In this document: piece after piece, positions 5,036 through 53,571 of the stretch
How positions within the stretch are numbered: position 1 is the first letter of the stretch
How the letters are laid out: every line of letters begins with the position of its first letter
NCBI RefSeq assembly: GCF_964355755.1
Contig: NC_092671.1
Span: forward strand, 8,432,001-8,496,000
Length of the DNA stretch: 64,000 nt
Source of the DNA: Antedon mediterranea
Taxonomy: Eukaryota > Animalia > Echinodermata
Reading direction: 5' to 3'
Program-made: the position numbers and the translations under genes
Notes under the pieces: generated by a model
Seen by the model: only the letters and a program-made list of their open reading frames with translations
Told to the model about the DNA's origin: nothing
Databases searched by the model: none

Positions 5036-5575
5036 ATGGCATCGGCAAGCCAACTACCGCATAGGAATCAGAACCATTTAAATTCATGCCGTTTCTACGA
5101 TTCCCCTCAATATAATGGATTTTCAAATTATGATCAGTTTTACCAAGACAGCGACCATTATTCGTCATACTCGAAGTATCCAAAAAGTCCGGACGAACTG
5201 TACGACGGCGACGAAAACTGTGAAAATGATGAAGAATGTTGGCGACGAGAAGAGAACCCAGATCATGTGTTGAATCCTGGTCATGCAAGGCATGGTAATC
5301 GCAGCTGTCTACTTTGGGCTTGTAAAGCCTGTAAAAAACAATCACATAGTTTGGACAAACGCCGCGCCGCAACCATGCGAGAACGCAGGCGGTTAGGTAA
5401 GGTGAACTCGGCATTTGAAACTTTAAAACGACACACCTGTCCGAACCCAGACCAGCGTATTCCAAAAGTTATGATATTAAGACACGCAATTCAATACATT
5501 GACAGACTGCAAATGATTCTCCATCAAAGTGAACAATCAGATACGGATAGTGCAAGGGATTCACCATTGAACAGG
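5036..5575 (+). CDS. MyoD: MRF-a (MyoD/Myf5-family myogenic bHLH factor), coding exon 1
   Basis: ATG in AACATGG context at 5036. The translation contains the His/Cys motif HVLNPGH...[11 protein letters not shown] and the b[56 protein letters not shown], including the myogenic-code Ala-Thr and junction Lys. The exon ends at a strong phase-0 donor AGG|GTAAGT and is 540 nt long. Confidence 0.96.
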
Positions 5576-8200
5576 GTAAGTTTATTAAGTTAACATTATA
5601 AAAATGACCGAAATAAAGGAAATGAATGAATGATATCCTAAGGTTGGAAATAGTAAACTAACTTGCATGCTTAATTATTAAATGTCTGCAATATGAAGTT
5701 TCTGTTGCAGTATTATATGATTGTTATGAAAACTAGTTAAAAATAAATAAAATGAAAGTAAATACGGTAATATGTGATGTTTAGTCGTATAATAGTTAAT
5801 ACGATCTTTCAAAGCAACTTACGTTACAAATTAAATGGAAAATTTACTGGTGAAGTTAATAAACAAAATAGATAAATCTGTACTGAAACATCTGCACTTA
5901 ATAATATCATTATTACATTAAAGAATATCGTAATATTTTCTTCCAACTTCATCGTAAAAAAAAATCGAGTTTTCATCAATGGGTTCAAGGCCCAGCTCGT
6001 CAGTGTGAGGTGGAAACGGTCACTTACGTGCCTATAATTTAAAGTATTAGTGATTTTAATGAGATACTTTTATAAATGAAAATTCCACATGGGAATGGGA
6101 AGTAAACAATAAGATGACTTATAACGAACTTTCATTTTCTGCAAAGCTTCTTGTGTTTATTAATTAGGAAGACAAAAAACAATAATTGATCTTTTTGTTT
6201 CATTTACATATTTTACTGAATCGGTTTTAAAAAACTTCGCAACGATTTTTCATTTATGTATACGAATGATGAATAAATTACTGTATACATAATATTACAT
6301 AAAGTATATACATACAGTACAACGGGTATACGGTAATATGCACCTTTTTACAAAATACATTTAAGTGAAACTTTACATTTTAAACCATACATTTATGTGT
6401 AAGTTTGTATTATTTTATTTGCTATATTATTTCACAATAAACTAAAGTTTAAATCGCTCATGAATTCCTTACGGATTAGTGTAATAATATCGTTATTACA
6501 TAGCCTATAGAGGCCCATAATGTAACAAAAATACTCAATAAAAAGGTTTATATAACTCCAGAAAATCGTTTCGATTTTAGGTTAACATGCGATCTAGTTT
6601 CTCTTTATCAGAGGCTATTCTATTTAATGTTGAAAGCAACAACTTTTTGAAGATTTAAAAATGTGATGTTTGTGAATAAAACAGTTTCTTGATTAAGGCT
6701 TGAGTTTACCAGCAGTGATGGTGTTCACACGCAAACGCGACGTATTATTATTTTCGACCTTGATGTCTCCCACTAATGGGGTATCGTTTCACTTCCTTCC
6801 GGTTTTCTCAAGGTGGGTATACTTTTGACAGATCTATCTATGTACCCGGCCTTCGATGTGTACCTATGTAACTGGTATAATGCTATAGTAACTGGCTATT
6901 ATGTAAAATTACAATTTAATTCAAGATGTGCCATTTGTCCTCCTTGAAGTAATCAATGTAATAAACTATAACATTGGATTTTTAAATTAACTTGCTCTCT
7001 CTACCAGGAAATGCTGAGGCAGGCTTCTATTGGTCGTTTTTACTTATTTTTTGTAGCTAAGGCTACAGAGCTCCGAGTTAATAGTAAAGTAAAATGAGAT
7101 AATCATGCTTGATTACAATTATTCTTTTCTCATTTTAGTGTGTTCGTTAGGGCCATCTGGACAAAGTGGGATTTAATTGAATGGAGACCTATTAAAAAAT
7201 CATGTCTCCATTCTCGTTATAAGCTGCCGCCCATTCCTTAGTCATTTAAATTGGTTGATTTGTAAAGCAGATTCAGATTCTTTTCTTCTTGTACTAAATA
7301 TTAGTCTATCAATATTAAATTAAGTTTTTCTTCTTTTTTTCTAAGTTTCTAACAGGCTTACCCAAGGTCTTCAGGCAGAGGATAGTAATACAGTAATTCT
7401 CCTTAACATGTTACAACAAGTGCTCTTATTAGAACTTCTACAAAATTAGGATACTGAGTTTACTAGATAACAATTATTCATCCTTTACAATTATTTCACA
7501 TGCTAACAGTACAGCGACATGTTTCTGACTTAAGTCAAAAAATGTATCAAATGTATTACCCCGTATATTTTGTAATCATCTATGATTCAACAGATTGCAT
7601 CAGTACTAACCCTGTAAAATGTAAACGTATACAAGTAATAGAAATTAGAAGAATATGTGAGGCACATCCACAAAGATAAAAAAATGCTATAGGCCTTGTG
7701 CGATAAACCCAATTTATGTTATGGATGTGTTGATGCTACAGTTTAGGTTCTGAAAAGTTACGTGTTTCAAACGCTGTTTTAATTATTTGAAACGATTTAC
7801 ACTATTTCTTTATTTATTTGGAGTTCTTTAACACAGGTGCTATGGTTTTTATAGATGTAAAACCCCTACCCGTCTGCGAATGACCTTCTTGGTTTGAACA
7901 ACGTCTTTAACTCCCGACAGCGCGGTTAAGCGTCCGAACCGCAACGGCTGTGGTTAAACGTTCTCATTGCTGAATGATATAAACAACCTTTACCCTGATT
8001 TCAAGTTATAAATTTCAATAGGCTTTATACCATTCCCCTGGAATTCCCAATAAGAGCATACCTCCAGGACCCAACAAAGGTCCCTTAAGAAATTTCCTCT
8101 GAATAGGGGTTGGCAAATGTGTTAAAACATATTATTTCCCCTTGGTTTCACGGGAAAGTGTTCGTTTCACGGGAAAGGAGTGTTTTATACTGTATTTTGT

Positions 8201-8316: not shown

Positions 8317-8994
8317 AGTCTTTGTTTTCGTTGATTACGGTATTTATTAAGCTCTTTTTATCAATGATACCAAAAGAGACAAAGTTGGTGTATCGTCCGC
8401 ATAGTTGAGTGTTTCTTCATATTTTAAATGCATAATGTGAATTTGTCGACCAGAAACTGATTTATTTTGCTTACGAGTCACATTTGTTGATGTAGCTGTT
8501 TTTTCAGCTTATGCTGTTTTCCAACCTGACATTATTATATAATTACATTTTGTTGCAGTTTTGTAGGTTCTTGAACTCGAACATTAAGATCACATAATAT
8601 TGTGTGTGTGATATGCTGGATTCCATACGTGCTCATCTGTTACTGTCATTAATTAACATGACAACTAATTAGAATTAACTATGAGCCGTTTCAGATCTGT
8701 AAAATTTGTAAATATGCACAGTAGAATATTTTGATTTCATATTATGATATTTCATGTTCATATCTCCTTAGGCTTATTACTGTAAATTACATGAAAAAAA
8801 ATGATAAAATTGTGTAATGAAAACAATACTTTATAATTCACGGACTCTCCTCCATCAATTTCGCCTAACTTTCCTCTTTTGTTTTGAAATATTTTTAAGA
8901 TGAGGATGGCCTACTATATTTACACAACATATAAATTTACGTAACTATTTCTAAATGAATTTAGATGTTCGTGTACAGAACAGCGAAACTGTCT

Positions 8995-9330
8995 GGTAAC
9001 TTTTACCATATTTTTTATTTCAATTGGTTTGTTCATGAAAAAAATATCAATGCTATTTTATCCATGGTTTTTAAATTCATTTTATAAAAAATGTAGAACA
9101 TCTACAAACCAATTGCTTCTAGTCCTATCTAGGCCTAACAACCTTTTTTTTTTATTTATGGTAACTTTTACCATTTTTTTTTAATTTCGATTGGGATGTT
9201 CATGAAAAAAATATCAATGTTATTTTATCCATGGTTTTTAAATTCATTTTATAAAAGTCTAGAACACATACAAACCAATTGCTTCTACTAGTCCTATCTA
9301 GGCCTAACACACTTTTTTTTTATTTATTTA
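8995..9330. repeat. Local tandem duplication, about 165 bp x 2
   Basis: GGTAACTTTTACCAT...CATGAAAAAAATATCAATG...CCTATCTAGGCCTAACA occurs twice in tandem. Confidence 0.9.
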
Positions 9331-12500: not shown

Positions 12501-15500
12501 TTCATTAGGATATATATCAGTATCAATGCCAGATTAATTAAACCCATATTAATTAACTCCAAACTAGTGTTTTCGTTAATGAATGGAAGGCAATAAACAT
12601 GCAGTCAATGCAACAAGTAATCAACACGTTTGATCCTACAAAAGTAGGGCCTAAATCAATTTTCTCGTGAAATCTTAATATGGAAAGCATTAGGCCTATA
12701 CGTTATAAAAGTATGGCATACTAGTTAAGGACACGTAATGTTCTTGAAACTTTCATCGGTTAACTCCGTCAACAGGAGTCCGTTATGGAACTCAGTACAG
12801 TCCTGATTACATTAACCACCAATACGTACTCTCAAAAAGGTTGTTTGACATTAGATCAAAAGATCTAGTGTCATTCTCCTAATTGTAACACTTCCTTTAT
12901 CAATCTACCTTAATAGTTTTATCAGATGGTTTACTACTAAAATCTCTTTTAATGCATTATTTCACAACTAAACTGACTCTACAAAATATGTCCAAATTAA
13001 TGATTGTTTGTATATAAAAGCAACGTAATGGGCAGTAGGCCTACAAGAATAACTAATTATCAAAACTCTTATGCAATACGGAAGAACTCTTCAGGAATGC
13101 TTAAAAAATGTCCGGTCATTGATGAATAAACATTATTAGCAAATAGGACTAATCATATAATATAGTATAGTAGATAAATAGACTCCTGTCGTTAATTCGA
13201 GTGAGGCAATTATTAATCAAAATGGTCGCCAAAAATGTGATTACATTGCTTTTTTATATAATTTCCATTTTCTAATAAAAACAATTTCGCAATAGATACT
13301 CTAAAAGAAATGTGATAAATTCTAACATTTCTGAACATACAATACAACAGAGACAATCCGAGTTCATTATTTTATAGACTTAAGTCTTTCTTTAGATTCA
13401 AAATGGACTTGCATTCTTGTAAAGGTTTACGTTTTTTACAGTGATATAGGACAGGTGTTTTATTACGATGTTGCCGCAGAAATCTTTACAGTTGAAAACA
13501 TTAGTGCTTTGAGAAGTTCTAGATATTTTTAATTGACAGTTAAGTGCCGGTTGTAATTTGCTTCGAGATTCAGAGTAGTAAAAATAAGATGGTAAAAACG
13601 TGCATTTCATTGGTGAATTTCATTCGGTTTACTTTTTACAGACAATGTATATGAGTGGCATGTAAAGGGACAGTGGCCGTATTCTCCAATCACACTTACT
13701 TCTCTTTACAAAGTATTTCACTTAAGTCATCAACAAATGTAAAAATCTCCCCTAAGTGGTATTCACGAGTGTTTACCTTTGCGTAAGTGTGACTAACTTG
13801 GCCAACCACAAAGAAAAAAAAATTACATTTGATGAGGCGGATACTGCAGGGATGACGGTACCGCTTCCCACTTCGACAGACAAAATAAAATGATGAACTT
13901 TTTCATATTTCACGAGAAACGTTACTTTAGGCCCTTCGTAACCATCTGGCTAACTGTTGATCGATTCTCCTCTCTCCTCCCCTTCTCTATCGCCTCTAAA
14001 ATAATGTTATCTAATTAGAGTTAGGCCTACATAATTAATTCGATTGCAATTATCTATGACATGACGTGCTGGGTTTGGCATGTACAAGTCATATTGTTTT
14101 TACATAACGCCCATTTAGGCTAATTATTGAATTTGTGTAACTGTGTAACTGTTGGTGAACTGTTACTACCGACCGTTAGATAAGCAATAGGCCTATATGC
14201 TCTGTAACAAAACTCGTACGGTATGCATCTCAATGGTTTTCATTGTTGGTTTGGTGGTGTTGTTTGTTTAATCAATTCATATTACAGTACAGTATATGCT
14301 TACACTTATAATATTATCCAAAAAAAATCGTTGAATGCTAAACGCGTGAAATGCCTAAGCTTAACACATCGGACGTACTGAACATGTCACGAACTGCACA
14401 ACAATACGTTTGAATTGATATTTAACACTGTTTAAATACAATTCAGTTATACGTTCTGTGTGATATATATATATATATATAACTGTCGCCTCACAAGGTG
14501 GAAACACCTTAGCTTCAAGGCGCCTAAAATAACAAATACAACATTTTAAAACAGCAAATAAACTAACGGAAACAATAAAGCATTTTCACTTTTTTACAGG
14601 TTTTATTCTGTTGATATTTATTCTTAGCTATACTAGATTATGTCACATGATCAATTACTGAGTTTCAACAAATGCTTAGATGCCAACACATCAATCTCAT
14701 TCTTTAGATAAATGTGTATAATTTCTAATTTAAGATCCGATTGATTTTGCCGCGTAAACGCGCTACGCATGCGCGTGGTTAATTAGTATACGTCGGCGTC
14801 TAGACATTCTGACTCAAGGTTTTCATAACTTCATTAATTTTTACTTGTTTTATTATCCCGGCGGTTATCTATAATAAACGTGTATAATTATTGGATTTGT
14901 TAAAACTTGCTTGAAGTGCGGATGATAAAACAATAGCTCACAAAATAAAACGTCAAATTGTATTGTTTAATTTCTTTTTTTTCTGACATTTCTTTATTAT
15001 CTACTTCTGTTGTTAAGTTTCATATTTGAAAAAATAATGACCTAATTAATGACAATATAATGACAATAAATGATGTAGGTGGGGTTAATTTTACGCGATT
15101 TTTAAAAATGCACAATTTGGTTAGCATCGTTTTGTTAATATCAATAAATAAATTCAAACAACTAATCGTGATTCTGCTCTAAATAGGAGAAGTTCATTTT
15201 TATTTTGTATAAGATTGAAAAAATTGAAAACATTCGCATATCAATAATTGAATTAGGCCTAAGTCGCCAAAACCGAGACTTGAACCATAGTCGTAATCAA
15301 ACTTAATATACAGTACCGTACCGTAGTAAACAAAAGACGCCCTTCCATTAAACCACATGTTTAAAGAAGATTAGATAATAATTATAAGCTATACTTATAA
15401 GTAGCAACATTGTTGTGTTAACATATGTAAAGTGTAATTCAATTTTTGCAAAATGAATTAAATTAACTTTACACTGGTTGCAAATAATGTTTAAAAGTAA

Positions 15501-15952
15501 AATTATAAAAAAAACATTTGAATCTAAAATTTTTCCTAAGCAACATTTTTTTTTTTTTGCTATTGTGATTTTGTTTTTATTTTATTCTATTACAAGTTGC
15601 ACTCGAGTCATCGTGAATAAGCGAAATCGTTTTACTTGTATGCAGTTGTTAAACATGTTAAAACTCATGATTTAGGACTAAAGATGCCTGGATAACACAG
15701 AAAAATAAAGATTTTACAATCTGGAAGAATAAGGGCAATTTTCTACCTGATATAAGTTATATATAAGACAAAATAATGACCTAACGTATGATATTGCATT
15801 ATGACAATACCAATAGTATAGTGCATTGTATTATTTGAGTAACTTAATAATGTACTCCAATACTCAACAGTTCTTTAAGAACTATGTTTTTTTAGTATGA
15901 TTAATTTGAGCCATTTCGATATTCACAAACTACCTCTCAATACTAACTTTAA

Positions 15953-16528
15953 AGGCCAGGTGCGGGCAAAAAATTTCTCTTGATTATACATTCCAATAAT
16001 TATTGATCTATACTTTGCCCTATGTCTCATCATTATTGGGATTTTATTTGTGAAAATAAGCACTTTCTAATCAGTGGGGGGGGGGGGGGAATAGTTAAAA
16101 TTACACAGTAAAATCTCTATTCTTTTGCACACAATTTTTGTAAATAGAGAGGCATCTTAAAAAGCTATGAAAAATAAACGGTGTGGTAAAAAATGTTATC
16201 AGATGACTAAATATAGGTAATATAACTTGAATATTACATTTCTGGTATTTTTATTCAACTTTAGATTTTTATTTTCTTGCTATAGCAAAAATTATCCACC
16301 GTATATCCACCATCTTTTTTCACCTTCTAGGGAGTCACCAGACATCTTATTACATTAGGTTAACTACAGAAAAAAGTCTTCTTGGTTTTATGGAAGAATT
16401 TTGCCAAATTTTGTATTTGACCATATCAAGGGAAATTCATGTTTTTCCGTCTTGATTTCTGTTACAAATATTTGATTATGTACAATTAACCAAATATTAT
16501 ATTTAAAATTCATGCCTGTACCTGAGCT
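15953..16528. mobile_element. Kolobok-like MITE in MRF-a intron 1
   Basis: TTAA on both sides, with imperfect TIRs AGGCCAGGTGCGGGCA / TGCCTGTACCTGAGCT. Confidence 0.6.
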
Positions 16529-18163
16529 TTAAGTAAAAACAACTGTACCGGTAAATGTATCAAAAGGATTAAACAAAAGCAGAATTTGTTTAAATGCCTT
16601 TAAAATGTCAATTTACATTGTATACTTTACAGGTGTAAAATGTCTCGAAAATCGTCTTGTCTTTTCACGAAATAAAAAAAAAGATAGAAGAAAATGGCCG
16701 TATGGTTCGGCGAGTATGAGTTCGATTTCACGGTGATAATTTATCTGAAGACAATGACATATTATATCCTAATTAGATCACTATTATTACGTCACATTAA
16801 TATTTAATAAAATTAGCAACAAATATAGGCCCATGCAACATTCCTGGCATTCTTTAGCGCTTATTAGCAATCTGCGTTGTGACGTATCTAGGCCCATCTT
16901 TGCTGCATTGTTCTAAATACAACTATAACTATATAATGATAATTAACAATGAGTAAATTAGGCCTATAACATTTATCTAACGGAATTTGTGTATGAAACT
17001 GGTTCAAATGCCTAATTACAATACAAGTTTTTAAAATAAAAACCAGTACGGTATACTCTGATCGGTTAATCTCTTCACTAAATGGGAACAATCCTATTTT
17101 AGTGTGATTTCCGTTTTGTATCGTTTTTTGTATAATGGAATATCTATTCTGAAATAAAGTGATCAATCAATCAATACTGACTTTTTCTACATTCAATCAA
17201 TGTTTATCTTTATAGATCATTCGTGATAAACAAAAACAAATCAATACATTTAATGAATAATCTAGAACAGCGATACCCGTATGTAAAACTAATATACCTG
17301 CTTCAAACAAAAAATAAATAAAGTTACTTAACAAAGTACAACATGTAATTGATTTCTTGTTCTTATGAATACACTTGGATGGTTTAAAGTTTGTCGTCAA
17401 ATCGTAAATGATTGTGCAACACGGAAATTGATCTCGTCTAAGAACTTTTTATCATCGACACAGTCGGAATAACAAGCGTATCACTGCATGTACTCGATAC
17501 CTCATCACAGTGTGATCCCGATTCGAAAATATAGCCAATGTATTTCCCGAGAGACCAAATAAATGGAAAATCTGATTTCTTATATTGTATCAAATTTTCT
17601 TGAAAGACGCGAACGATCTAGAAATTTACGTAGCGTAGATTTGGTAATAACATGGATACGCTATACTACTGGGACGAAGCGGATGGGTGTCACTTTACCT
17701 CCCTTGTTTGCAACCGAACCCGTATCCTAGGCCCAATTATTGTCATAGCTAGGCCATGCAAACTCAACTGTCTAGGGTAAAATAATGTTGTTAAAGGCAG
17801 GGTGAACAAACAAAGAAATGTATGTTTCGTCAAGGAATATGATATGATTGATTTTTAGGAGTAAACATGTGATAATATCTTGAATGTTTGAACACCATCA
17901 TGTACTGTAGGCATGCCTACAATGCATTTCAAAAGATGTTCAAAATAACAACAGCACTCACCTTTTACTTTTCAACAATGTTGAAATATCGAAATCAAAC
18001 AAATACTAATTATATAAATTGTTTAACAATGGTATTCATTGTGTTGTTGTACAGTTACAGTAATAGTCTCTAGTTATTTTTCTACTGTGTGCCAACATTC
18101 TTATAGTTTTTCTAATACCGTGTAGGCCTAAAGTATAATTATGATTAAATTATTCCTTAACAG

Positions 18164-20912: not shown

Positions 20913-21031
20913 ACAACTCCGATGGTTCTACGAGTTTGGAACACCTAAACGATATGGTGCAGAAAATCACACCTTCACGATACGGTCCAGGGTATCTAAA
21001 ACTTACAACCAATCAACAAGAAGATAGATGA
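20913..21031 (+). CDS. MyoD: MRF-a coding exon 3 with divergent helix III (DNSDGSTSLEHLNDMVQKITPSRYGPGYLKLTTNQQEDR*)
   Basis: Acceptor tatacatttcag|AC, phase 1. STSLEHLNDMVQKIT aligns to the MRF helix III consensus SSLDCLSSIVERIS. Stop TGA at 21029-21031, immediately followed by a second TGA. Confidence 0.85.
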
Positions 21032-21775: not shown

Positions 21776-21930
21776 GATTATCATTTATTATTGATGATGA
21801 TGATCATACATGATGATAACCAAGATTATAATGATCATGGTGACGTTTTTCCATTTCTTGGTTTAATATTTTTTTGTTTTTGTAAGAATTGGGGAATTTA
21901 CGAAGATTACCAATACGAGTTATTTTCTAA

Positions 21931-22070
21931 AGCTCTGTCTACACTATCAAACTTTAGGAGGTGACAACAAAATGGGATGTGCCCATGTTGGACATTGATG
22001 TCATATCACTACCATATTTGGGCACATCACACTTTTGTTGTCAAACTAGTTTGATGGTGTAGACAGAGCT
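21931..22070. mobile_element. Short Harbinger-like palindromic MITE
   Basis: TIRs AGCTCTGTCTACACTATCAAACT / AGTTTGATGGTGTAGACAGAGCT, flanked by TAA and TTA. A second copy lies near 34274-34419. Confidence 0.75.
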
Positions 22071-23302
22071 TTATATGAAAAATAGAGATCCATTCACTTT
22101 ATATCTAATTATCTATATGATTACATATATGGGAATCTAAAAAATGCAGATTGGCTGGATTGGGTCGACCGGCCGGGCTGGAATAAATAATTATACTACT
22201 ACATTCTAGGCGTATGCTATCATAACACATAAATATCGAAGAACTATCTTTCTTACAAGAAAGTTTTAATTAAGAACATTTTTTAATTACAGTTTTAATG
22301 ACAGTTTTTCTTCTTTTTAAATTGTTTTAGAATTGAAAATAGACCTACGCTAATTTGCTGTGTTTAAATGTAAATGCATAAAATATCAAACTATTTATAA
22401 AAATGTTATATTGAAATAAAACATATCCAACAAGAAGTATATTTTCGAATTCTTAATCTCAAAGTTCACCTCCAGAAGTAAGGCCTGTGTCTAGTTTTAA
22501 CCGAAAGTATAAATCGAACGTAATCTTTCTGATTATATTTATATATTTTTTCAGGTGAGTAAACCTTAAAATTATTTAACTTTATTTGCCCGTCGGCCAC
22601 ACATCCACTTTTTTAAATTATGATTTCACTTTATCACTGTAAATGTATTTACTTACGTGTGGAAATTCAATAAAACAACAAACAAATTCTATTTTGTTTG
22701 CTTAAAAAAGTAGACAAAATATTGTATAAAGAACGTGTACTGTTTGATGAATATTATAATGAAGAATATTTGAAAGTACAGTTCTACGATGAAGTTGGTA
22801 TTCCATAGATTCATAATTGAAGGATAGCCAAGCGTGTGTATAAATACGGTACAGTAAATGTTTTAGAACAGGTAGTATGAGGTATCACACAAATAACATT
22901 AAACAGTATTGTCACCAAACCATTATTTTGAAAGGCTTCCAAGTCGTTAAAACTTATACTTATTATACATAATAGTACGGACTCGCGCTCTTAAAAATCT
23001 AACGTAGAGAGGGCGATATACATTAATTGTGAAAGAAACATCTTCTTTTACAAATTTATTTTTACTAATACTTATTATTAGCAGACATTGTCCGGCTCAC
23101 TTTTTTCCAACAAAAAATAGAATATTATTTTAATTTCCTGAAAGTCAAATTCTACTATAGACTGTATAATTATCATACTAATAATAATTATGCATGTGAA
23201 TTAAAAAAGTTTTCTTGAAGAGGGTGCTCAATGTTTCAGTCGCACATAAAAACAAAATGAATATTTATCACTACTTTACACGATATAGCCTACTTATCTA
23301 TA

Positions 23303-23592
23303 TGTAAGGATGTGGACGACAACACAAAAGGAAAAACACGCCTTTTCTCACTTTTACCACGGTCCGGTGGTGTATTTGGTTTTAATTTGTTTTTAGCATA
23401 ACAATAGAGATCAGTATGGTCCTTTTAATCAGATCTTTAATTAAGTAAGAGACAAAACTATCTGCTTCCTTGACCGGTTCATGAATCCAAAAAGAAAGAA
23501 AATCATTTGAAAAAGACTGTTACAATTATAGGGGGCAGTAACACCTATAGGGGGCAGTATTTAATTATCACATGATTAGATTAATCCCCACA
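23303..23592 (-). repeat. 3' LTR (290 bp), short form
   Basis: 23303-23421 matches 23958-24076 with no difference seen. 23422-23592 matches 25796-25965 with about 4 differences. Confidence 0.92.
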
Positions 23593-23899
23593 CTCCCCTG
23601 TTTAAGCTGAGTTTGTCCTCAAACTTAATATTATTCACAACAAGAAGAATCTTTTCAGCATTTTCAGAGTCAATGCCAGCATCATCAGGCCAGTCAGGGT
23701 AAACGTCCCCAGTACCATCGTCTTCAACAAAGGACTCTACACATTCCCCTTCGGCTCCCACAAAGTGTCTCATCTTCTTCTCTGGGAGAACATATACTGT
23801 GTTTCCATTCCCATGGGCAGCACGCCTAGTTGCTTCTAGTTCGGCTCTTAGCTCATCAACCGTCCTCTGCACATCTCGCAACGATGCCTTGCTTGCCAT
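23576..23899 (-). pseudogene. Truncated gag N-terminus fused in frame to the element's 3' internal end
   Basis: MASKASLRDVQRTVDELRAELEATRR...TVYVLPEKKMRHFVG...VESFVED resembles Gypsy gag starts (coiled coil, then a YVPxERKxxxFxG-type motif). The frame runs through the PPT into the 3' LTR. No pol domains are present. Confidence 0.7.
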
Positions 23900-23936
23900 C
23901 ACTGATCTCTAATGTTAAAGCCAAATACGATCCACG

Positions 23937-23954
23937 ATCCCACTTCTGACACCA
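23937..23954 (-). other. Primer-binding site (tRNA-Leu-like)
   Basis: Minus strand TGGTGTCAGAAGTGGGAT lies directly after the 5' LTR and begins with TGG, complementary to the tRNA CCA end. Confidence 0.85.
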
Positions 23955-23957
23955 AAT

Positions 23958-25965
23958 TGTAAGGATGTGGACGACAACACAAAAGGAAAAACACGCCTTT
24001 TCTCACTTTTACCACGGTCCGGTGGTGTATTTGGTTTTAATTTGTTTTTAGCATAACAATAGAGATCAGTATGGTCCTGAAAACCACATAATAAATACAA
24101 TGAGAAACAAAAGTAAATAATATTCTAAAATACAAGCCAATTCTTAGTAACGACCTCAACTTAACAGGCGACTCTAATAAAAAGGATTCTCTCTGAGGAC
24201 TGCGACTATTACGTCAAACGGCACGTCTACCTAAACAGCCTCTGTATACTTTGTTAGAGTATACAAATACCTAATTAATTACCTACACAATTGGGCGCTA
24301 GTTCCGTTTCGCACCTGTTTTTATTTCGACTTCCTTTTGACTCCAAATTGTTAAGCAGCTTTATTGTGAATACTACACCTTAACATTGGGCCTCATAAGT
24401 ACTTTTATGAAGAAGAATCACATAACAAGTAACAAATAAATCCTTAAATTGATGATTTTACAGACATGTTTCTCGCATACCGTTCGCGAATTTAGCATAC
24501 TCGAAGTTCAATATTTTCGTTTCTATGGAGCGCCAAAAGAGCAACAACAATAGATGGTTAAAACCTCAGTGGAATGCGTCTTCTTTTAATGCATTTATTA
24601 TTGAAATACACGTTTAATTTTAATATATTTTGTCAATAAAAATGCTGTAACATTTTACTGCTAATAATTTGCTATTTTCAAATAGCAACCAACCCTAGGC
24701 CTAAGAGTAAGACTAAGACTAAGAGGCATATTATTTAGATTAAGGTATACCTCCCCTAAGTACATGTAATATGATGATGAATTTGTCGATTTTCATTCCT
24801 AAAAGTTCCTGCAAAAACCATGTACAGTATCAACATTAATATTTTTGTTGCATTAACATTGACAAAATATGATAAAATTGAACGTAATTTTGACCAATAA
24901 ATGCATTAAATATACGCAATTTACTGAGTTTTTAGCCCTCTATTATGATTGCTCTTTTGGCGCTCCATAGAAACAACAACATTGAACATGGAGTTTGCGA
25001 AATTCACGAACCGATGTGCGAGAAACACACGTCTGTAAATTCATAAATTTAAAGGATTTGTTTTTTACTTTTTGTGTGACCTCCTTCGTAAAAGTATTTT
25101 TGAGGCCTAATTCTAAGGTGTGGTACTCACGATAAAGTTACTTAACCAATTTTGAGTCAAAATAAACGACAGGTGCGAAACGGAACTAGCGCCCACAATT
25201 GCATCATAAGTGCCTGAATATTACTATTATATTACTAGAATAAATGCATGTTGGAATTTACTCACACTATTTGAATACTAAACTTAGTCTATTCATTGAA
25301 TCAAGGAGTTATAATCTTAGGTTTGTGTAAAATATATAAACAATAACAAATCCATGGGCGCAGCCATTTTGTATGATAAATAGAGGGCGCACTACATGAC
25401 GATCTATCACGAGCATGGTAGCCTCGTGTGTACAAATTAATCAAGTGTGAACTGTAGGATGAACTATTTTATACAAACTGTTAACTAGAAACTATCTTCT
25501 ATAAACTAAACATTACTAAATCTATCTAAACATATTTTGTTAATACAAAGAAGGTTTATCACAAAAGTATAATTATATTATAACATTATATGGCATAAAA
25601 TCCTAGTTCAAAGATTGTAACACAATACTATTCAATAGGCTTCCTAACTGCACATTCCATGAGTCAAGGTTAACCCAAAACAAATGTCTAGGCCTATGAA
25701 TGCAATCATCTTAAAATACAACATTAATGTTTCTTAAACATAACAGAATCTTATAAATGTATAACAAAGTAATATGTATAAAGTAGAGCAATTACCTTTT
25801 AATCAGATCTTTAATTAAATAAGAGACAAAACTATCTGCTTCCTTGACCGGTTCATGAATACAAAAGAAAGAAAATCATTTGAAAAAGACTGTTACAATT
25901 ATAGGGGGCAGCAACACCTATAGGGGGCAGTATTTAATTATCACATGATTAGATTAATCCCCACA
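23958..25965 (-). repeat. 5' LTR (about 1.1 kb natively, 2008 bp including the nested MITE)
   Basis: It shares both ends with the 3' LTR. The extra segment 24077-25795 is bounded on the minus strand by AAG|GTAATT and ggttttcag|G. Confidence 0.9.
24294..25193. mobile_element. Merlin-like foldback MITE (900 bp) nested in the 5' LTR
   Basis: Terminal inverted repeat GGCGCTAGTTCCGTTTCGCACCTGT / ACAGGTGCGAAACGGAACTAGCGCC, extending imperfectly for about 350 bp. 8-bp TSD CACAATTG at 24286-24293 and 25194-25201. GG termini with an 8-bp TSD fit Merlin; the family name is inferred. Confidence 0.85.
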
Positions 25966-28363
25966 TATACACCAGTTATTAATATGGATAGTAAACCGTT
26001 TTTATTTACCAACATCATAGAAATAATAATAAATCTATGCTAGCTTAGAAAGCATAAAAAAGAACAAAAGAAAACATTAATTTCGACTAACCATAATTTC
26101 TGTGATTTCTAGGCCTAGGCCTACTGCAAAACCGTAAACCAGCCAAACAAGATAATTGATGGTCACCTTGCGTACGTATTGGGCCATAGTCTCATCATAT
26201 CTTCTTGGCCGTGTAGAATAAGAAAATAACAAATAATAAGAACTTGCTTATTCAAATATATTCAGACAAATAGGCCTTATATTCATTAAGGTGACATCTG
26301 ATTCCTCCCTGGTTATAGTAGAGGCTCACTACCAAGTATTATGCTCCTCCCTTCTACGAATTTCAGAATTCCTATTACGTAACAAAATAATGAACGGTAT
26401 GCTTATTCATGCGGACACGTACAATGGCCTACTCTTCTGCATTTGCATATAAACGAGTAGGGCCTACAGTACTACAGTAGGCCTCTCACTCTATGTATTG
26501 AGGACATTCTTATTAGTACGGTAAGTAAAACCCTTTGTCAAATAGTTAGTCTATTCATTAAGGATATGAAAAAAACAACAAAATAGACACAATTCAGAAC
26601 AGTAAACATGTCATAATTCGTTCATATCCGTAGGCCTACAAGTTGCGTTTGTGCGTAATAACCTAACTTGTCCAAAGTGAGGAGCACCCTGTTACAGTAG
26701 GCCTATACTTGTAATCCTTATATCTTGTTTGTTTGTTTGTTTTATGTATATTTACTATTCAATCATAGTTTACTTGATCTATTTCTAAGTTTAGTAGTAA
26801 ATTGTGTACCGTAGTTTGGATAATAATAACATAATTCAAAAGACAACTTTATATTTTGATATTAGGCCTACTAGTTATCATTACACAGTATTGTAGTGTG
26901 CTTATTTTTTTCGTTTTGTTTGTTCTATGATTAATAAAGAAACGCATTATTTAATCAGACCAATTACAATCCGATATAGACACTACAGTAATATTATAAA
27001 TTCATGCAAATTATACACGATATAAAGCTATTAAAAAACAATATTCTACACGCTGAAGGTGCTACATAAAGTCAGTGAAATGCATTTGCCAATAGAAGAA
27101 CGGCCTCCCTAGGCCCAGTCAGTTCGTAAACTATTGATAATGTTCAGAACATTTAAATAATTGAATAACTAATGCTACTTCCGCTAAGATAAAATATTAA
27201 AAAATGATTATTTATGGGTGACAGTTGTGCTGTCTATAAGTCATTAATCGTTAATATGCCTATGTTTTGAATGAGTTTACTTGTTTTCGATAATACATGG
27301 GGCGCCACCAACGCCCTTTGTAATTGTTTATCGTTTTAATGCGCGGAAATATTACCTCCCATGAGTACAGCTCTGCGGAAAAGAAATCACGCTCGACATG
27401 GCATTGCAACAAATATAGAATCTATTTTGTCCCTAGTGATAAAGTATAACGCCTAACTATTAGTCTATTGAGGTTAGAAAACACGCCTGGTGCACAGCGC
27501 CCTCATTTCCTGCCAACTTGTTATAACTTTTCCATCAGTTTAAAACATACTTAAACAGATTTCCCAGTGTGTCACGCAGATGAAAAAAGCAATGATGGAA
27601 TTGACGTTTAGGCAGCGAATAACGTGGTGAAGTAAACCACTGGTTAAACAAGCCTTACTAGAAGTCAATCAACCAAAAATGTCATATCGGCTGGCATAGA
27701 AAATCTAAAAGTAATTCGTTTTGAGGATTTCCATAAACCGTTGTAGAATATTATACAAGCCATGTCTTCCCTAGGGTACGTGGAACATCATTGAAGATAA
27801 CAATGTATGGTCCCTAAAGATACGATATCCATGATTTCATTATACCAAACGTCTAGGCACAAAACGATTACAAAATAAGACAAGTTAAAAAGTGACGAGA
27901 AATAAAAATCAAAGTGCATTGTGAAAATCCAAATGTTGTTTTAAACTCTCTTAGGTAATTCCTTGACAAATTTGAAAGGAATTGGCGTTGTATTTTTCTC
28001 TGAGGTATAAAAAAAAAAAATTGTTCATGCTTGTTGTTATTGCCACAATCATAACATTGTTTTTATTTAACACTCGTCATCAATTTTTATTACTACATTT
28101 CTATTTTCTACATGACAAATCCATACAATAGAGAGAACAAACACATTACATTACTGAATTTTACAATATCGAACAAAATGGTTTACATGGTTTTAGTATG
28201 GAGGAATGGTTTTAGCTTTAATGATTGTTTAGAAACAAACTCGCTGTGTTAAAATTATGATGTTTAAGTGTGTTTTCCAATGGATGACATTTCCTTATTC
28301 TTGCGCGTTGTACTTCATAAGTGACAACGAGAAACACGTATCTGAGGTGTGAATGTGTCAAAC

Positions 28364-28399
28364 CATGGACCTATAAATTCTCTAATTTATAGGTCCATT
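28364..28399. mobile_element. 36-bp hairpin micro-element with a 7-bp direct repeat
   Basis: ATGGACCTATAAATT-ctct-AATTTATAGGTCCAT, flanked by GTCAAAC at 28357-28363 and 28400-28406. Confidence 0.7.
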
Positions 28400-31300
28400 G
28401 TCAAACACTGTGATAATGATATGTATTGTACCTGTACATAGATTTGTGTGGTGTACGTCACTGAAGGGTTGGTCTAAGTGTTTACCTATCTACGTAAATA
28501 CATAAAAATGACGTCATCATCTTTCACCTTCATCCGTGTGCGTGTGAATGGGCGTTTAATCTCAAATAAGACATTCTCATTATATAATTCCGTAGGCCTA
28601 CTCATCGTGAATGTGACACCTTCTAACATAGAAGGCGTGGCTAAAAGTTCTCATTAAATCATTAATATGACCTAATCTTTGGTGTGTTAATTCGTATACT
28701 TGTAATGTCACAAGCAATAAAACAATCACTAATGCAGGCCTCAACGACACAGTGCAGTGGACGTAGAAATTGCCACAATTGAGAAAAAACAGTCGATAAA
28801 AATGTTCCTAATTTTAAACGTTCTAGGTTCGAGTCAGGGACTTTAGGCTAGTTTGTAATGAGCCGTGAAATGGGTGATTATACTGATGTAATTAACTGAA
28901 ACACTGTAACGCCCTGTTTAAACTTTGAATCATTGAAGTGTCAACCCTGGTAACAACGTGGTTGCGTTGATTGAAGAAGTGTCCGAAACACGGATGAATT
29001 GGATATGCCTACAGACTCTCAATTTCATTGACCTTAAAATAACAATGGAACGATCTCTCCTCATTGTTAATTAATAGAAATAATAATTAATTAATATAAA
29101 AAATAAATCAAAATATATTTATTAACTATTTAAACATTTTTTCATAAAAGACGCGAATTTGTGCGAATTGAACATTCATGCGTTCTGATTGGTTGTTCAT
29201 GTTTTCGCATTGCAAAAAGTAGATGAAAACATATATATACTACGCATGCGCAAAAAACATTGTCTATATTCACGCAAAGGTTTAAAGTGGAAGTTCGGTC
29301 TCTGACAATGTCCACCGCAAACCGTATATCATTGTATAAAAATGATGCAAACATCGTCTATAGCCAATCATATCCCTAATCTTGTTTTCCTCTATAATAT
29401 TAATAATAAACTTTCCTCCCATGAGATGAGGGATGAGAAATATATGCCCACACACATACAACATGATAATAATGGTTTTAATAAAAGTTTATTGACTTCT
29501 TAAAGAGGCTATGGCAATACATGATAAGTCAGTAGACCGCTTGTTTATTCTCCTATTTCGTGCGCACTGCGTGGCAAACTATCACCGATCGCGCTACTAC
29601 GCGTGAAGCACGGGTGCGATGTATTGCAGACTATTTGTGTAGAGTATGGGCTTTATCAACAGGTGTATAATTATAATTTATTTAAATATGAGCAAACCAA
29701 CAAATGTAGCGACAGTTCGTGACAGAGCAGCTTTAAGTTTTGCGCATAAAAACCCATGGAGGTACCATCTACCCTTGGGATTTTCCAGATAATTTAATAA
29801 ATTTCCGTTATCTGTTTAATGTTGCAGAGGGTGCGGCTTGGTTCTGCACCTGCTTTGTACTCTTCGCGGCAGCTAATATCGCGGCCTTAACCTCCAAGAT
29901 TTAGTAACATAACTCCACACTCAAAATAAATGATAGGACTATTCAGAAAACAAAAATTAAAAATAATCAGTAGGCCTAGAGTAGATACACCTAGCAATAC
30001 AAAAGAAACTCAATAATCGATCAAATGTGTTTATGAAACTTGAATTATTGCGCACGCTTACCGTTGTTGATTAACGTGACATCATCACGTTGACGGATGA
30101 AAGTCCGGGGTGCAAGGTGAATGGTTACAGAGATGCGTTATAATGTACGACGAATATTCATTTGTTCGACCTGTATTAGATGATTAATGATTTGTTCGTA
30201 ATTTTTTTCCTGTTGTGGTTTGTGATTCATGAACCATAACACATACAGTCTCATCTTTATTCTGAAAGGTAGTTTGTATACATCAATAGCGCCCTCTAAG
30301 TTCAAGGTCAGTATTGACAGCGGAAACCAGAAGTAGGCTAAGGCAATACGTAGTCTTCATCGCTGAAGTGCGTCATGGTTTTTGAAGGATGGCAAACAGA
30401 ATCGAGAAAAAACGCATTGTCATGAACTCGCCGGACTGGTTCATGGCCGGATATGGGGCTACCGGGGGTTCGTACGCAGGTCGCCCATCCTGTGTAGAAA
30501 AAAGACGCCTGCTTACTCTCTTGGGGAAGCGGAAAACCCCTTATTTATTGGAGCTAAATTAGTGATCAACAAGTAAACCTGTTGCGGTGTGACTAAATCT
30601 CGAGTTCCGAAATGGAAAACACGGCTACCCCGGTACCCAACTGGTATTGCAATTTACAAATAACACGATGTCACCACTGAATTAGATTATGCTAAAATAG
30701 CTTGTTGTCCCGAAACATCATAAAGCTGTCAAATAAATGAGAATATCTGAATACTGATCATAGGAAACATTCACGGTTATAAAGGCCCAGGTTAGAACCT
30801 CTTTGACAATGACATAAGCCCGGTTAAGTACTCCCATACCTCCGTCAATACAAACCAATCCAAGCTGTACACCGTAATACGGATCCTGCTCATAAGTTTC
30901 CCTGTCAAAAACAATAAACCCGGTTAAGCTCCCTTTATGAAACGAGCCCGTTTCGTTCCCCTAGTAGTATATATAACACACTCAAAATCGCCAATAGCAA
31001 GACAGCTAAAAGTATAATTTAAGGAAGTTTTTTCATGAATCTGCTTATACAAAAACGTGCAATGTTTAATCATGTGTTATGACATGTCTTGTGATTGAAT
31101 TAAACTGTCCTCGTCCCGAAATTGGTTCTTTTCCTCGATGTTACAATTGAGAGTTCGATTCATACCACGCACGCAAATCGCTTGGGACAAAACTAACGCT
31201 CCTCTAACTTTGATCTTTCTATAAAACAATGTGATGGACCGGAGCAAATGACGTGTATTATCATAAATAGGCCTAGGCCTAATGGGTTTTTTTAAAGCAC

Positions 31301-33566: not shown

Positions 33567-33759
33567 GAAAAGAAGCCCATCTCGAAAAGATGGCCTGCAA
33601 TAGTAACCTCGAAAAGAAGCCCATCTCGAAAAGATGGCCTGCAATAGTAACCTCGAAAAGAAGCCCATCTCGAAAAGATGGCCTGCAATAGTAACCTCGA
33701 AAAGAAGCCCATCTCGAAAAGATGGCCTGCAATAGTAACCTCGAAAAGAAGCCCATCTC
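33567..33759. repeat. Perfect 44-bp tandem array (about 4.4 copies)
   Basis: Unit GAAAAGAAGCCCATCTCGAAAAGATGGCCTGCAATAGTAACCTC starts at 33567, 33611, 33655, 33699 and 33743 (partial). Confidence 0.95.
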
Positions 33760-34273: not shown

Positions 34274-34419
34274 ATCTGTCTACACTATCAAACTAGTTGG
34301 AAAAAAAATTGATATGCCCAAATATGGTGGTGATATTCCCAAATATGGTAGTGATATGACATCATCATGTACATATATATGGGCATTTTTGTTACATAAA
34401 GTTTGTATACAAAGAGCTT
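34274..34419. mobile_element. Degenerate inverted copy of the 21931-22070 MITE family
   Basis: Shares TCTGTCTACACTATCAAACTAGTT and GCCCAAATATGGT(A/G)GTGATATGACATCA with that element. Confidence 0.7.
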
Positions 34420-42312: not shown

Positions 42313-45145
42313 GGTGTTGCATTTTTAATAATAATGTGATGTGTTTAGCTGTTTTTATATATTGCTAATATCACCAGAGTATGATTTATTTTCATTTTGG
42401 CAGTCGGAAACAACTTTAGGTTACGCAACCCATTTCCTCATATTATATATAAAATATATATTATATTAACTTTTAAATAAGAGAGGATTAAGTTTGTTTA
42501 ATATCGCATCAAATTTATCATGTGATGTGGATTTTAAAAGCTTTTCTTTGACCTGGCTTCCTTCCTTGCAGATTATGGGGGGAAGAGCTGAAGACAAAAA
42601 AGGTTACGTTGAAACATATAAGAATATGATAATATTCAACGTTAGCAATTCATTTCATTGATGATTTATATTTCTGGTGGAAATAATACGTCGTATGCGT
42701 TACACGCAAGATATTGATTTTGTTTCTGAAGTTCCTTCTTGTAGTACCACGTGACTATTATATCTGTCTCCGTTGGGGGTGATTTGTTCATATTTGCCAT
42801 TTTACGGATTTAAATACATAACTTTCATTGAAAGCACATGCAAAGGCAGGAAAAAAATTTACGGTTAGTTTTGGATCGTAATAGAACAGATCTCTAAGGA
42901 GATGCGTTTAGCGAAGTGGCCAAGCGTCGATACCAGTCACTGATCACTCCCATGGTGCTGTTGTTAAAAGGTTGTTTCCTGCTAATACAATGATGCATAC
43001 AGGAGAATACTCGTTATACTAATTTCTCAAACATGTTTAAACAACAAAAAATCCATATATTAATCTTGAATACTAGTTAAGCATTAACTATCAATATGTT
43101 ATTTGTATAGTCGAGAGGGTCCTTAAAAAAGCACGAATTTTCTAAGGGAAAGAACCAGTTTCGTGTTGGTAAACCTTATTATGACGCCCAGATTTTTAGA
43201 TCGGGTATAAATTTTAATTCGTAGTTTTTATCATGAATTCTCCATTGTCTGATTATATTTTATTGTTTTACCATTTTAGGCTTATTATCTTTTTATTATT
43301 TTTCCCCGTTACGTTTCAACACATATAACGATGGATATTCCAATAAAAACGTTAAATCCCAAACTGTCATTTATCATTTTAAAGAATAAACGGTATTGTT
43401 GACGATGGTCTAGAAGCTTTAGCTTTTCACAGTCACTGTATCCGAATGTATACACAATAATATACAGGTTCAACTATTCAATGTAACGTTTTAATCTAAT
43501 GCAATATAGTAAAAATAGTTTAACCAAAATTAATTTGATTAGTGACAACAAACAACATAATATTCAACCAAAACCAGAAAAAATGTGTCATTTGTTGTAA
43601 GCAATTTAAACAGTAAATGCTTTTACCGAAGTAGGGCTACAGTAGGCTTTCCTTTTTATTGAACTACAATGTATTTGATTATTTCAGCTAAAAATATCAT
43701 TATATACATAGAACTGATGTCTGTTATATAATTATTATTTATAAAGAGGTTAGGGAATCTGTGGCACACATATTTTGCCAAAAGAATTTTATCAAAAAAG
43801 GATAATAAAAATATAGAACGCAAAATCAAATATAGGCTATAGTGGAAGGTCAAACATAAATAAAGATTATCATAGAAGTACTTAACTAAAATGGTCTCAA
43901 TTAGGCGAATTGTTTAGAGCTCAGACGTATTTGCCACTAAATGACCCGAACGACCCCGCTATGTTATAGTTCAATTTACAGTCTGCTACAATCCATTACC
44001 GCGCCAATATCTCGATATGCGTCATGATGGAAATCTTCTAGTTATTAAATTCTTCTTTATATCCAAAACAATGTTTTTTTCTCACATTTTTGGAGAACAT
44101 AAAAAGTAAATTTCAAGATGATTTAGTTTAGATTTCACCCAGTTCTAGATCTACTGATCCACCACTTTACTTAATCTCTCTTTTAATCCATGTTGTCAGT
44201 GTAAATCCCCTTTTATATTTAATCCTACACTTAAGATTTAATTCCTATTTATAAGTATAAGAATATGAAGTTACGTCGTGAATAGGTACTTTTTGCCAGA
44301 CAATGAGCCTCCTAATATACAGTCTGAAAGTTAGTACAGTAGTAGTGGGACATGTCAATAGTATAGCAAGTTTTTCCAATAGTTCTTTTACGGTGGTTTT
44401 GTATCCGATGTGTTACGAATTGTATCAACGACAGTAATAACCTTTATATAACACCTAAATAAATTCCTGTCATTTGATTGGACGATTGTGGGTCACATGG
44501 CGTGCAATAGTACGCACTATTAAACGCATCATTCACCTCATGCCATTATTTGTACCATTACACTCATAAACATTCATTATTTGTATAATATCACACTGAT
44601 GGTGGTGTTTTTAAATTACGGTGATCAATACAATATTGGACATGCCTAGCAAATTATAGTAATATAATAATACCTTTCTTCATTCAAATCAGTAAGCTCA
44701 AACAAACTTTTAATATTTCATCATCCACTCTTCGACATTCCTCTTTATGACTATATATGCTTTGTAAAATACACGTGTATGTCACTTTAATGCAAATACT
44801 TAGAAAATCGATCAGTAGAACCGTTTGGAGGTCATGCGTCTATGCGAACAAAAAAAAAGAATCAAAATTAATATCCTAAAATGTGATAATTACGACTAGA
44901 ATCTACTATGAAAATATACGATCGTAAATCTGCCAGAATCTCCGGATATGCATTTTATGGATAATTTCATGTGAACGATAAATATTTTTCAAAAGGAAAA
45001 AAATGTCGATAGCATTGCACTTTTCAAAACTGCCTAGGCCTATACGTAATCTGTTAACGATGATTGAACGAAGTTTCATAATTTTCAAGAACTTCACTAT
45101 TAATTCTATACAGAATAATATTAGCATTTATTAGAATTTCGTTTT

Positions 45146-45530
45146 AAATAACGTAGGCCTAAACTCATTCGATCATGAAGCCGTCCAGGACCTGTTTTCC
45201 TGGAAAACCCTCCTTGAGCCGTCAACTAGGTTGATGTACAACAAGTAGGCCTAGGCCTAACTGAATGTTACATTTGTCTATCATTTCAGGCCTTTATGCC
45301 GCAAACAATAATAAAATAATTATAGAATAGTATATATATTATATAGAATATTTTGCATTAAATAACGTAATCTCATTCGATCATGAACCCGCCCAGAACC
45401 GGTTTCCCATAAATACCCTCCTCTATGATTCGCCACAAATAGGTTGATGTACATAAGGTAGGCCTACAGTAACCGAATGTTACATTTTGTCTATTATTTA
45501 AGGCCGTTATGCCGCGAACAATAATAAGAA
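45146..45530. repeat. Diverged local tandem duplication, about 170-210 bp x 2
   Basis: AATAACGTA...CTCATTCGATCATGAA...TAGGTTGATGTACA...GAATGTTACATTT...TTATGCCGC.AACAATAATAA occurs twice. Confidence 0.85.
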
Positions 45531-53443: not shown

Positions 53444-53571
53444 TCAGCATACGCACATTCCATCGGCTGTTGCTTTCTTGGGTGATGTGATGGCTTTGCC
53501 TTTATTTGGAGTTATACTTTCAACAATAAGGGACAAACAGTCAAGACTTGATGTACTTGTACAATGGTATC
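53444..53571 (-). CDS. MyoD: MRF-b (second MyoD-family gene), terminal coding exon with canonical helix III (GYHCTSTSSLDCLSLIVESITPNKGKAITSPKKATADGMCVC*)
   Basis: Minus-strand acceptor ttattgttaattgcag|GA, phase 1. SSLDCLSLIVESIT is a near-perfect MRF helix III. The stop codon ends at 53444. Confidence 0.92.

Follow-up and report, generated by a model that had tools for sequence, protein, structure and literature searches.

A Non-Autonomous LTR Retrotransposon of Antedon mediterranea with One Long and One Short LTR, Probably Copied from Unspliced and Spliced RNA

Introduction

Spliced transcripts contained within LTRs have been reported for LTR retrotransposons of maize (bioRxiv 10.64898/2026.05.08.723830). 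As set out in the available portions of that preprint, these introns lie inside LTRs and have canonical junctions, like the one predicted here, and the authors claim the first evidence of biologically relevant LTR introns. The maize evidence consists of RNA in a plant, whereas ours is animal DNA, and the same portions describe neither genomic intron-less LTR copies nor a pair of spliced and unspliced LTRs. A spliceable intron in LTR-derived sequence also occurs in EF1alpha/HTLV vector promoters, which contain part of the HTLV-1 LTR (bioRxiv 10.1101/2023.01.28.526022). In contrast to the present case, that intron is engineered, and the available text describes no natural population of intron-less LTRs.

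Reverse transcription of Ty1/copia and Ty3/gypsy elements and of retroviruses, as outlined in the available sections of two sources (PMC6894440, PMC6088434), involves a primer-binding site (PBS), a polypurine tract (PPT), LTRs with TG..CA ends, a short target duplication, and recombination between co-packaged RNAs; all of these recur, the last as a proposal, in the element described here. In the canonical two-RNA scheme of these sources, two RNAs are packaged together and recombine, yet the second transfer takes place on the same cDNA and the product LTRs are identical. The present element, in contrast, carries two different LTR forms of one family.

Two further groups bear comparison. Animal TRIMs (ta-TRIM, PMC4558846; biv-TRIM, PMC6934838) are likewise non-autonomous LTR elements of small size whose internal part is short, and transcripts of ta-TRIM are sometimes cis-spliced; going by the excerpts available, the element examined here differs in being larger, in retaining gag coding sequence, and in having an intron-bearing LTR of ~1.1 kb. 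In LTR-mediated retroposition (Tan et al. 2016, PMC5131818) and in gene-capturing plant TRIMs (PMC4717578), a sense, in-frame host fragment replaces part of an internal ORF at short shared stretches, and the chimera keeps transposing non-autonomously, as appears to be so here. From what the accessible parts of these papers describe, the present case differs in its echinoderm host, in the captured fragment (cyclophilin 40), in that a precursor is seen, and in that the carrier has an LTR intron.

No published report of genomic intron-less LTR copies, or of an element that pairs a spliced with an unspliced LTR, was found in a literature search that covered few subscription journals. No LTR-internal introns are described in the available portions of PMC5542766, PMC6431247, bioRxiv 10.1101/2022.02.16.480772, or PMC12786077.

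Architecture of the Element

The window, i.e., the whole 64-kb stretch of DNA analysed, is free of N and contains one copy of the element, with no second copy found within it. Orientation on the minus strand is set by the positions of the PBS and PPT. The features of the locus are as follows.

23303-25965, minus strand: whole element, flanked by TATA on both sides, with TG..CA ends
25966-25969, no strand: target-site duplication TATA on the 5' side of the element; the empty-site contig of sample X1 joins 23298 to 25966
23299-23302, no strand: target-site duplication TATA on the 3' side, from sequence
25965-23958, minus strand: whole 5' LTR, long form, 2008 bp
25796-25965, minus strand: upstream part of the 5' LTR, U3 plus a likely short first exon, 170 bp
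25796-25834, minus strand: candidate exon 1, the 39 bases preceding the donor, of which the intron tail may be a decayed copy
24077-25795, minus strand: predicted GT-AG intron of the long LTR, 1719 bp including the MITE, multi-copy in the family
24292-25195, no strand: MITE with 27-bp perfect terminal inverted repeats, between CAAT duplications at 24288-24291 and 25196-25199
24077-24115, minus strand: intron tail and acceptor, a putative decayed, in-register copy of 25796-25834
23958-24076, minus strand: downstream part (R-U5) of the 5' LTR, 119 bp
24041, minus strand: candidate poly(A) site, ATTAAA followed by a GT-rich stretch
23937-23954, minus strand: PBS, beginning with TGG at 23954
Between 5' LTR and 3' LTR, minus strand: internal sequence, 365 bp
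23720-23899, minus strand: gag residues 1-60, identical to the annotated A. mediterranea protein P0001
23624-23728, minus strand: coding fragment captured from host PPID (cyclophilin 40), 34/35 identical to P0002 over residues 205-239 and in frame with gag
23576-23899, minus strand: 107-aa chimeric ORF (gag-PPID-tail), with its stop within the 3' LTR
23593-23599, minus strand: PPT
23303-23592, minus strand: 3' LTR, short form, 290 bp, with the junction between 23422 and 23421

The element is 2,663 bp long, or 1,755 bp without the MITE, and a copy with two short LTRs would measure 945 bp. The MITE and its CAAT duplication account for 908 bp, which leaves 811 bp of the 1719-bp segment. Direct terminal repeats, TG..CA ends, a PBS, a PPT, a short target duplication, and an empty site in another sample identify a non-autonomous LTR retrotransposon; the element has no pol. 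The PBS presumably matches tRNA-Leu; no tRNA gene was found in the 64-kb window. P0001 contains a zf-CCHC domain, and its relatives match PNMA (best E 2.6e-8) and, only weakly, Retrotrans_gag. The element is taken to be a young, non-autonomous retrotransposon, probably of the gypsy type.

Assignment to the TRIMs was considered and rejected. Their size limits, given in the accessible text as <1,500 bp (PMC4717578) or <1,000 bp with 100-250-bp repeats (PMC6934838), are exceeded, and 60 gag residues are retained, while TRIMs are defined by having no retrotransposon protein sequence. TRIMs would further be expected in at least two copies with different target duplications; on this point, family sequence has a high depth in X1, a sample without the present insertion. 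Outside these samples, a scan of metagenome contigs with the gag alignment gave 323 pattern hits, of which 0 were confirmed, and a scan of such contigs with the LTR motif found 0; among 8 candidates, none was an annotated copy of the 107-aa chimera.

The MITE itself has a 4-bp duplication and, internally, long arms that form an imperfect inverted repeat. It is present in very high copy, with a summed depth of up to ~2,000 times that of the flank in X1, and it is abundant in a second organism (organism B, below) too. Short near-perfect inverted repeats at 21928-22073 (26 bases) and 28355-28408 (25 bases) are likely small MITEs, and the former also matches 34275-34336. Local tandem duplications occur at 8994-9327, 33567-33759, and 45136-45527, with periods of ~165, 88, and 214 bases. 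As for genes, a MyoD-family gene (HLH and Basic domains) is found at 5036-5590 (+), and the element lies ~2.3 kb beyond its stop codon; what we take to be the last exon of this gene, at 20915-21031 (+), resembles myogenic helix III. An ORF at 53444-53656 (-), with a stretch that we likewise take to resemble MyoD-family helix III, may represent an exon from a second MyoD paralogue that runs convergently.

Splice Signals and Differences between the LTRs

The first-pass annotation had described a single element with an intact TATA duplication, in which a segment of the 5' LTR (24077-25795; 811 bp without the MITE) is missing from the 3' LTR, and each of its structural statements was confirmed on the sequence. 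On the sense strand, the segment begins at a donor, AAAAG/GTAATT, at 25795 and ends at an acceptor, TTTTCAG/G, at 24077, and the junction in the 3' LTR reads AAAAG/GACCAT. Donor and acceptor have three letters (AGG) in common.

Features of a U2-type intron are present: GT..AG ends, a donor consensus, and a pyrimidine tract. Among 82 GT sites of the long LTR with the MITE removed, the donor alone agrees with the consensus at 8 of 9 positions. Among 62 AG sites, the acceptor is the richest in pyrimidines (0.72 over 40 bases), and an AG-free run of 48 bases precedes it. No canonical branch-point motif occurs within 100 bases of the acceptor, and the nearest YTRAY-type motif is at 24217, 140 bases upstream. 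Deletions of at least 100 bases could be placed in 312,885 ways, 7,385 of them with a microhomology of at least 3 bases; 110 of the 7,385 are GT-AG compatible, and two, one being the observed event, link a donor and an acceptor that both rate as good, by the general splice consensus and by thresholds for good sites that were chosen after the site was seen.

The downstream sides of the two LTRs are identical at 119/119 positions, and the upstream sides (170/171 bp) differ by three substitutions and one indel. A confinement of the differences to the U3 side had been put forward as compatible with two templates; the counts (four vs none) stand, and the clustering is not significant (p = 0.12).

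Both LTR Forms and an Empty Site in Other Samples

Parts of the stretch were present in 19 public runs, all in the form of contigs, which show presence and not absence. Five runs were compared, and the junction comparison covered four (X1, X5, X6, and X12). X1 and X5 are from the same organism, X1 differing from the window in both flanks, and X6 is from organism B.

In X1, a contig of depth 265 joins 23298 to 25966 where the flanks have depths of 264-265. Because this is the empty site, the insertion is polymorphic and both flanks belong together. In the very sample that carries the empty site, the short junction (joint 24075 to 25795, equivalently CT..AC one place on) has a depth of 6,850, or ~26 times that of the flank, the predicted intron of the long form has depths of 10,725, 13,138, and 12,419 (41-50 times flank), and the internal part has a depth of 7,650 (29 times flank), although contig depth is no copy number. 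The short junction has a depth of 239 in X5 and of 59 in X6, where the flank has 43; in X12, a run of low depth, it has 0. The short side of the junction contigs is 24 letters long in X1 and X5, below the bridging mark of 31, which is passed in X6 alone (51 letters). An arm of 24 letters would be the length expected if the contig ended at the variable base 25819.

Other forms of the family were also seen. A long LTR free of the MITE is present in X5 and X13, and X5 also has, at depth 20, another junction of the short type, in which 18 bases are inserted. A contig of organism B joins across the intron segment; in X6, positions 25220-25774 at 82%, and 24153-24232 and 25273-25752 at 90%, are without cover in contigs, which attest presence rather than absence. 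In X12, a contig links the PPT and U3, and its six end letters fit either the long or the short form.

Comparison with organism B gives two differences in 168 bases over the element (23835-24002), and 16 differences plus 34 gap letters in ~225 bases over the flank (26062-26286). That the element is closer than the flank hints at recent transfer or introgression between both organisms.

Two uses of X5 were tried and abandoned. Its flanks are without cover, as in an RNA sample, but its depths (U3 ~489, internal part 227) equally fit low-coverage DNA. Similarly, the higher depth of the 3' part of the intron (383 vs 218) might have pointed to transcription starting within the intron, but contigs cannot show starts.

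Origin of the Short LTR

A junction unique to this locus had been named among the observations that together would count against splicing. The junction was instead found in three of the four runs, the sample with the empty site included, and for this reason the caveat that had accompanied the proposal, a microhomology-mediated deletion at the locus itself, falls away. Such a deletion, removing the segment from the 3' LTR after insertion, would account for the shared AGG and for an allele common to both LTRs at 25872/23499. It is contradicted by the abundance of the identical junction in X1 and its occurrence in the second organism, and by two LTR differences that are alleles of other samples; a chance recurrence of the same deletion would be needed, and we regard it as scarcely credible.

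The short junction is not confined to a single allele. At 23445, it is accompanied by G in the window and by A in X6 (59.4/59.4, the depth of the joint contig), and in X1 a contig with A, at depth 3,017, has its end 6 bases away from this site. At the matching position (25819), the long LTR of the window has A, and a long form with G can be inferred from summed depths only. The short junction is thus shown to be present on more than one allele background, which fits repeated splicing better than a single deletion, with the proviso that template switching can shuffle alleles too. The short LTR form likely comes from reverse transcription of a spliced RNA, a proposal of the first-pass annotation that is now well supported by the junction in several samples and that draws on DNA contigs.

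Two other histories of the short form, both quite unlikely in our estimation, are to be weighed against splicing. One is a single ancestral deletion, by DNA repair or by a slip of reverse transcriptase at AGG, that was amplified later. The three shared letters at the junction, the 39-base stretch, 67% similar, that precedes each of the two ends (see below), and an enzyme prone to switch at short matches, as in the capture of PPID, would all accommodate it; however, only 2 of the 7,385 microhomology deletions connect two good splice sites, the junction lies on at least two allele backgrounds, and a crossover in the similar stretch would leave bases of the intron tail in the short LTR, where there are none. 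The other history makes the short LTR ancestral, the long form the result of a recent 811-bp insertion at a proto-splice site, and the mixed copy a recombinant of two lineages. The organism B contig that joins across the segment and the diverged short-type junction of X5 speak for such an order of events, as does AAG/G at the junction, which we take to fit a proto-splice site. Against it, the intron tail matches the exon end at just 26/39 positions, yet long and short LTRs differ, in their exon parts, at only 4/290. If the tail is a true copy and the exons have not been homogenised by recombination, the intron predates the short copies that exist now. Taken as a whole, a family with two LTR forms, in which the short form arose through spliced RNA and the mixed copy from two templates, is the reading that we hold to be probable.

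The Intron Tail and the Start of Transcription

The repeat finder carried the match between the LTRs 39 bases past the junction. The last 39 bases of the intron are identical to the 39 bases preceding the donor at 26/39 positions, in register (67%), and at 24/37 when AG is left out (shuffle p = 5e-5). An equal or better score occurs at eight of 127,928 window positions, three of which are likely these very repeats, and at one of 1,041 with similar T content. The match ends at ~40 bases.

On the simplest reading, the intron tail began as a copy of a 39-base first exon and has since decayed. We infer from this a start site upstream of the donor, a promoter left within the short LTR, and an intron much older than the short copies of today. 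The intron would be a leader intron ~40 bases after the start site, and likely an old one, because its tail has 67% identity with the end of the exon, against ~99% between long and short LTRs. Since the tail copy is inexact (26/39), the intron is not being rebuilt from spliced RNA now. It had also been suggested that splicing strips promoter sequence from progeny as a form of self-limitation or host defence. This is unsupported: in DNA the short junction is plentiful, and a start upstream of the donor is hinted at by the copy of exon 1.

An origin of the intron by tandem duplication was rejected, as the heads of the intron and of exon 2 agree at just 14/40 positions and gapped alignment of the whole upstream part with the intron gives scores that 120 and 97 of 300 shuffles attain, hence no significance. 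Promoter motifs were likewise too weak for placing the start. These include what we take to be a TATA-like motif at 25473, a YY1-like motif at 25370, and, by eye, an initiator- and DPE-like pair near 25837 and 25810.

One Copy from Two Templates

The present copy likely took one LTR form per end from two different templates, a view that depends on the assembly for the pairing of the two forms at the locus. A two-template origin, already suggested by the first-pass annotation, gains support in that two of the four LTR differences are alleles in other samples. Both bases at 23445/25819 occur in X1, and the allele of the 3' LTR at 25912 is found at 287/489 in X5, 75/75 in X6, and 0/24,340 in X1; the other two differences were not among the variant rows shown for the samples. 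Both LTRs of the window have A at 25872/23499, where only C is seen in the four runs, and the two templates are for that reason considered close siblings.

Unspliced RNA would give rise to copies with two long LTRs and spliced RNA to copies with two short ones, these RNAs being packaged with the proteins of a gag-complete partner. A mixed copy could be born in a particle that holds both RNAs, through transfer of plus-strand strong-stop DNA between two cDNAs or through recombination of cDNAs prior to integration. Such pre-integration routes are the most likely source of the asymmetry. We give them slightly better than an even chance, on the grounds that the upstream part differs along nearly its full length and that the templates are siblings; conversion of one LTR once the element was in place has slightly less than an even chance. 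The accessible part of one study reports conversion in LTRs to be common in plants (PMC7251063). Self-priming by the splice junction was discarded, as no complement of at least 7 PBS bases occurs in the sense strand of the element as present in the window, the short junction included.

It is also conceivable, though very unlikely, that both LTR forms are real and that their pairing arose in assembly, as a chimera between one long-long and one short-short copy. None of the contigs listed spans the whole element, and the internal part is identical among many copies, both of which would ease such an error. On the other hand, both flanks match a single empty site with a single TATA, the element is just 2.7 kb long in a window free of N, and both LTRs share the allele at 25872/23499 that is absent from the four runs. 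Relative to the internal part, the short junction has a depth of 0.90 in X1 and of 1.05 in X5, ratios that fit frequent mixed copies and equally a blend of long-long and short-short copies.

Capture of a Host PPID Fragment

Apart from its LTRs, the element is distinguished by a 107-aa ORF, in which gag residues 1-60 (identical to P0001) are fused in frame to residues 205-239 of PPID (P0002, 34/35); P0001 and P0002 are named by NCBI as proteins of A. mediterranea, and these matches make the host a feather star, likely of that species. At the protein level, the residues VED are common to gag and PPID at the point of entry, and AAG is shared at the return. A host coding fragment thus replaces part of an internal ORF, with microsimilarity at the switches, as in LTR-mediated retrocopies. 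This capture, like the resemblance between intron tail and exon end, had gone unnoticed in the first-pass annotation.

A PPID-free precursor is represented in X5 by a joint from 23626 to 23720 (depth 59), with 24 bases that read gag IKAAIKVR by hand translation, and a different X5 contig departs from the element at 23624, beyond which it reads as PPID (AIGNDQFKAK, also by hand translation). In X1, no precursor joint was found and the summed depth over the captured part is ~15,000-17,000, which makes it likely that the form amplified in that sample is the one with PPID. The same reverse transcriptase would have switched, at an earlier time, onto host PPID RNA and back. The capture matches LTR-mediated retroposition and indicates that the enzyme switches between RNAs.

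According to the available part of one study, plant cyclophilin 40 aids the loading of Argonaute (PMC3851725), and an effect of the capture on silencing is speculation. In a more far-reaching version, which we consider rather unlikely, mixed elements would be a routine product of the family through frequent second strand transfer between co-packaged spliced and unspliced RNAs, the intron tail would be a fossil of the intron's birth from strong-stop DNA that had jumped wrongly, and small RNAs derived from the element could, through the amplified PPID fragment, be directed at a chaperone with a part in Argonaute loading. The near-equal depths of short junction and internal part are as routine mixed copies would predict.

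Implications

An intron within an LTR would serve as a natural reporter of the source RNA of each LTR. In a family that has both forms and mixed copies, breaks of LTR identity at insertion, whether by second strand transfer or by later conversion, would become countable in an animal genome. The rule of LTR identity underlies both LTR-based dating and LTR-finding software, and copies of this kind would be missed or misdated. The family further displays the steps of a capture, from full gag through a deleted precursor to the PPID-bearing form, and it may hold a trace of the birth of a spliceosomal intron.
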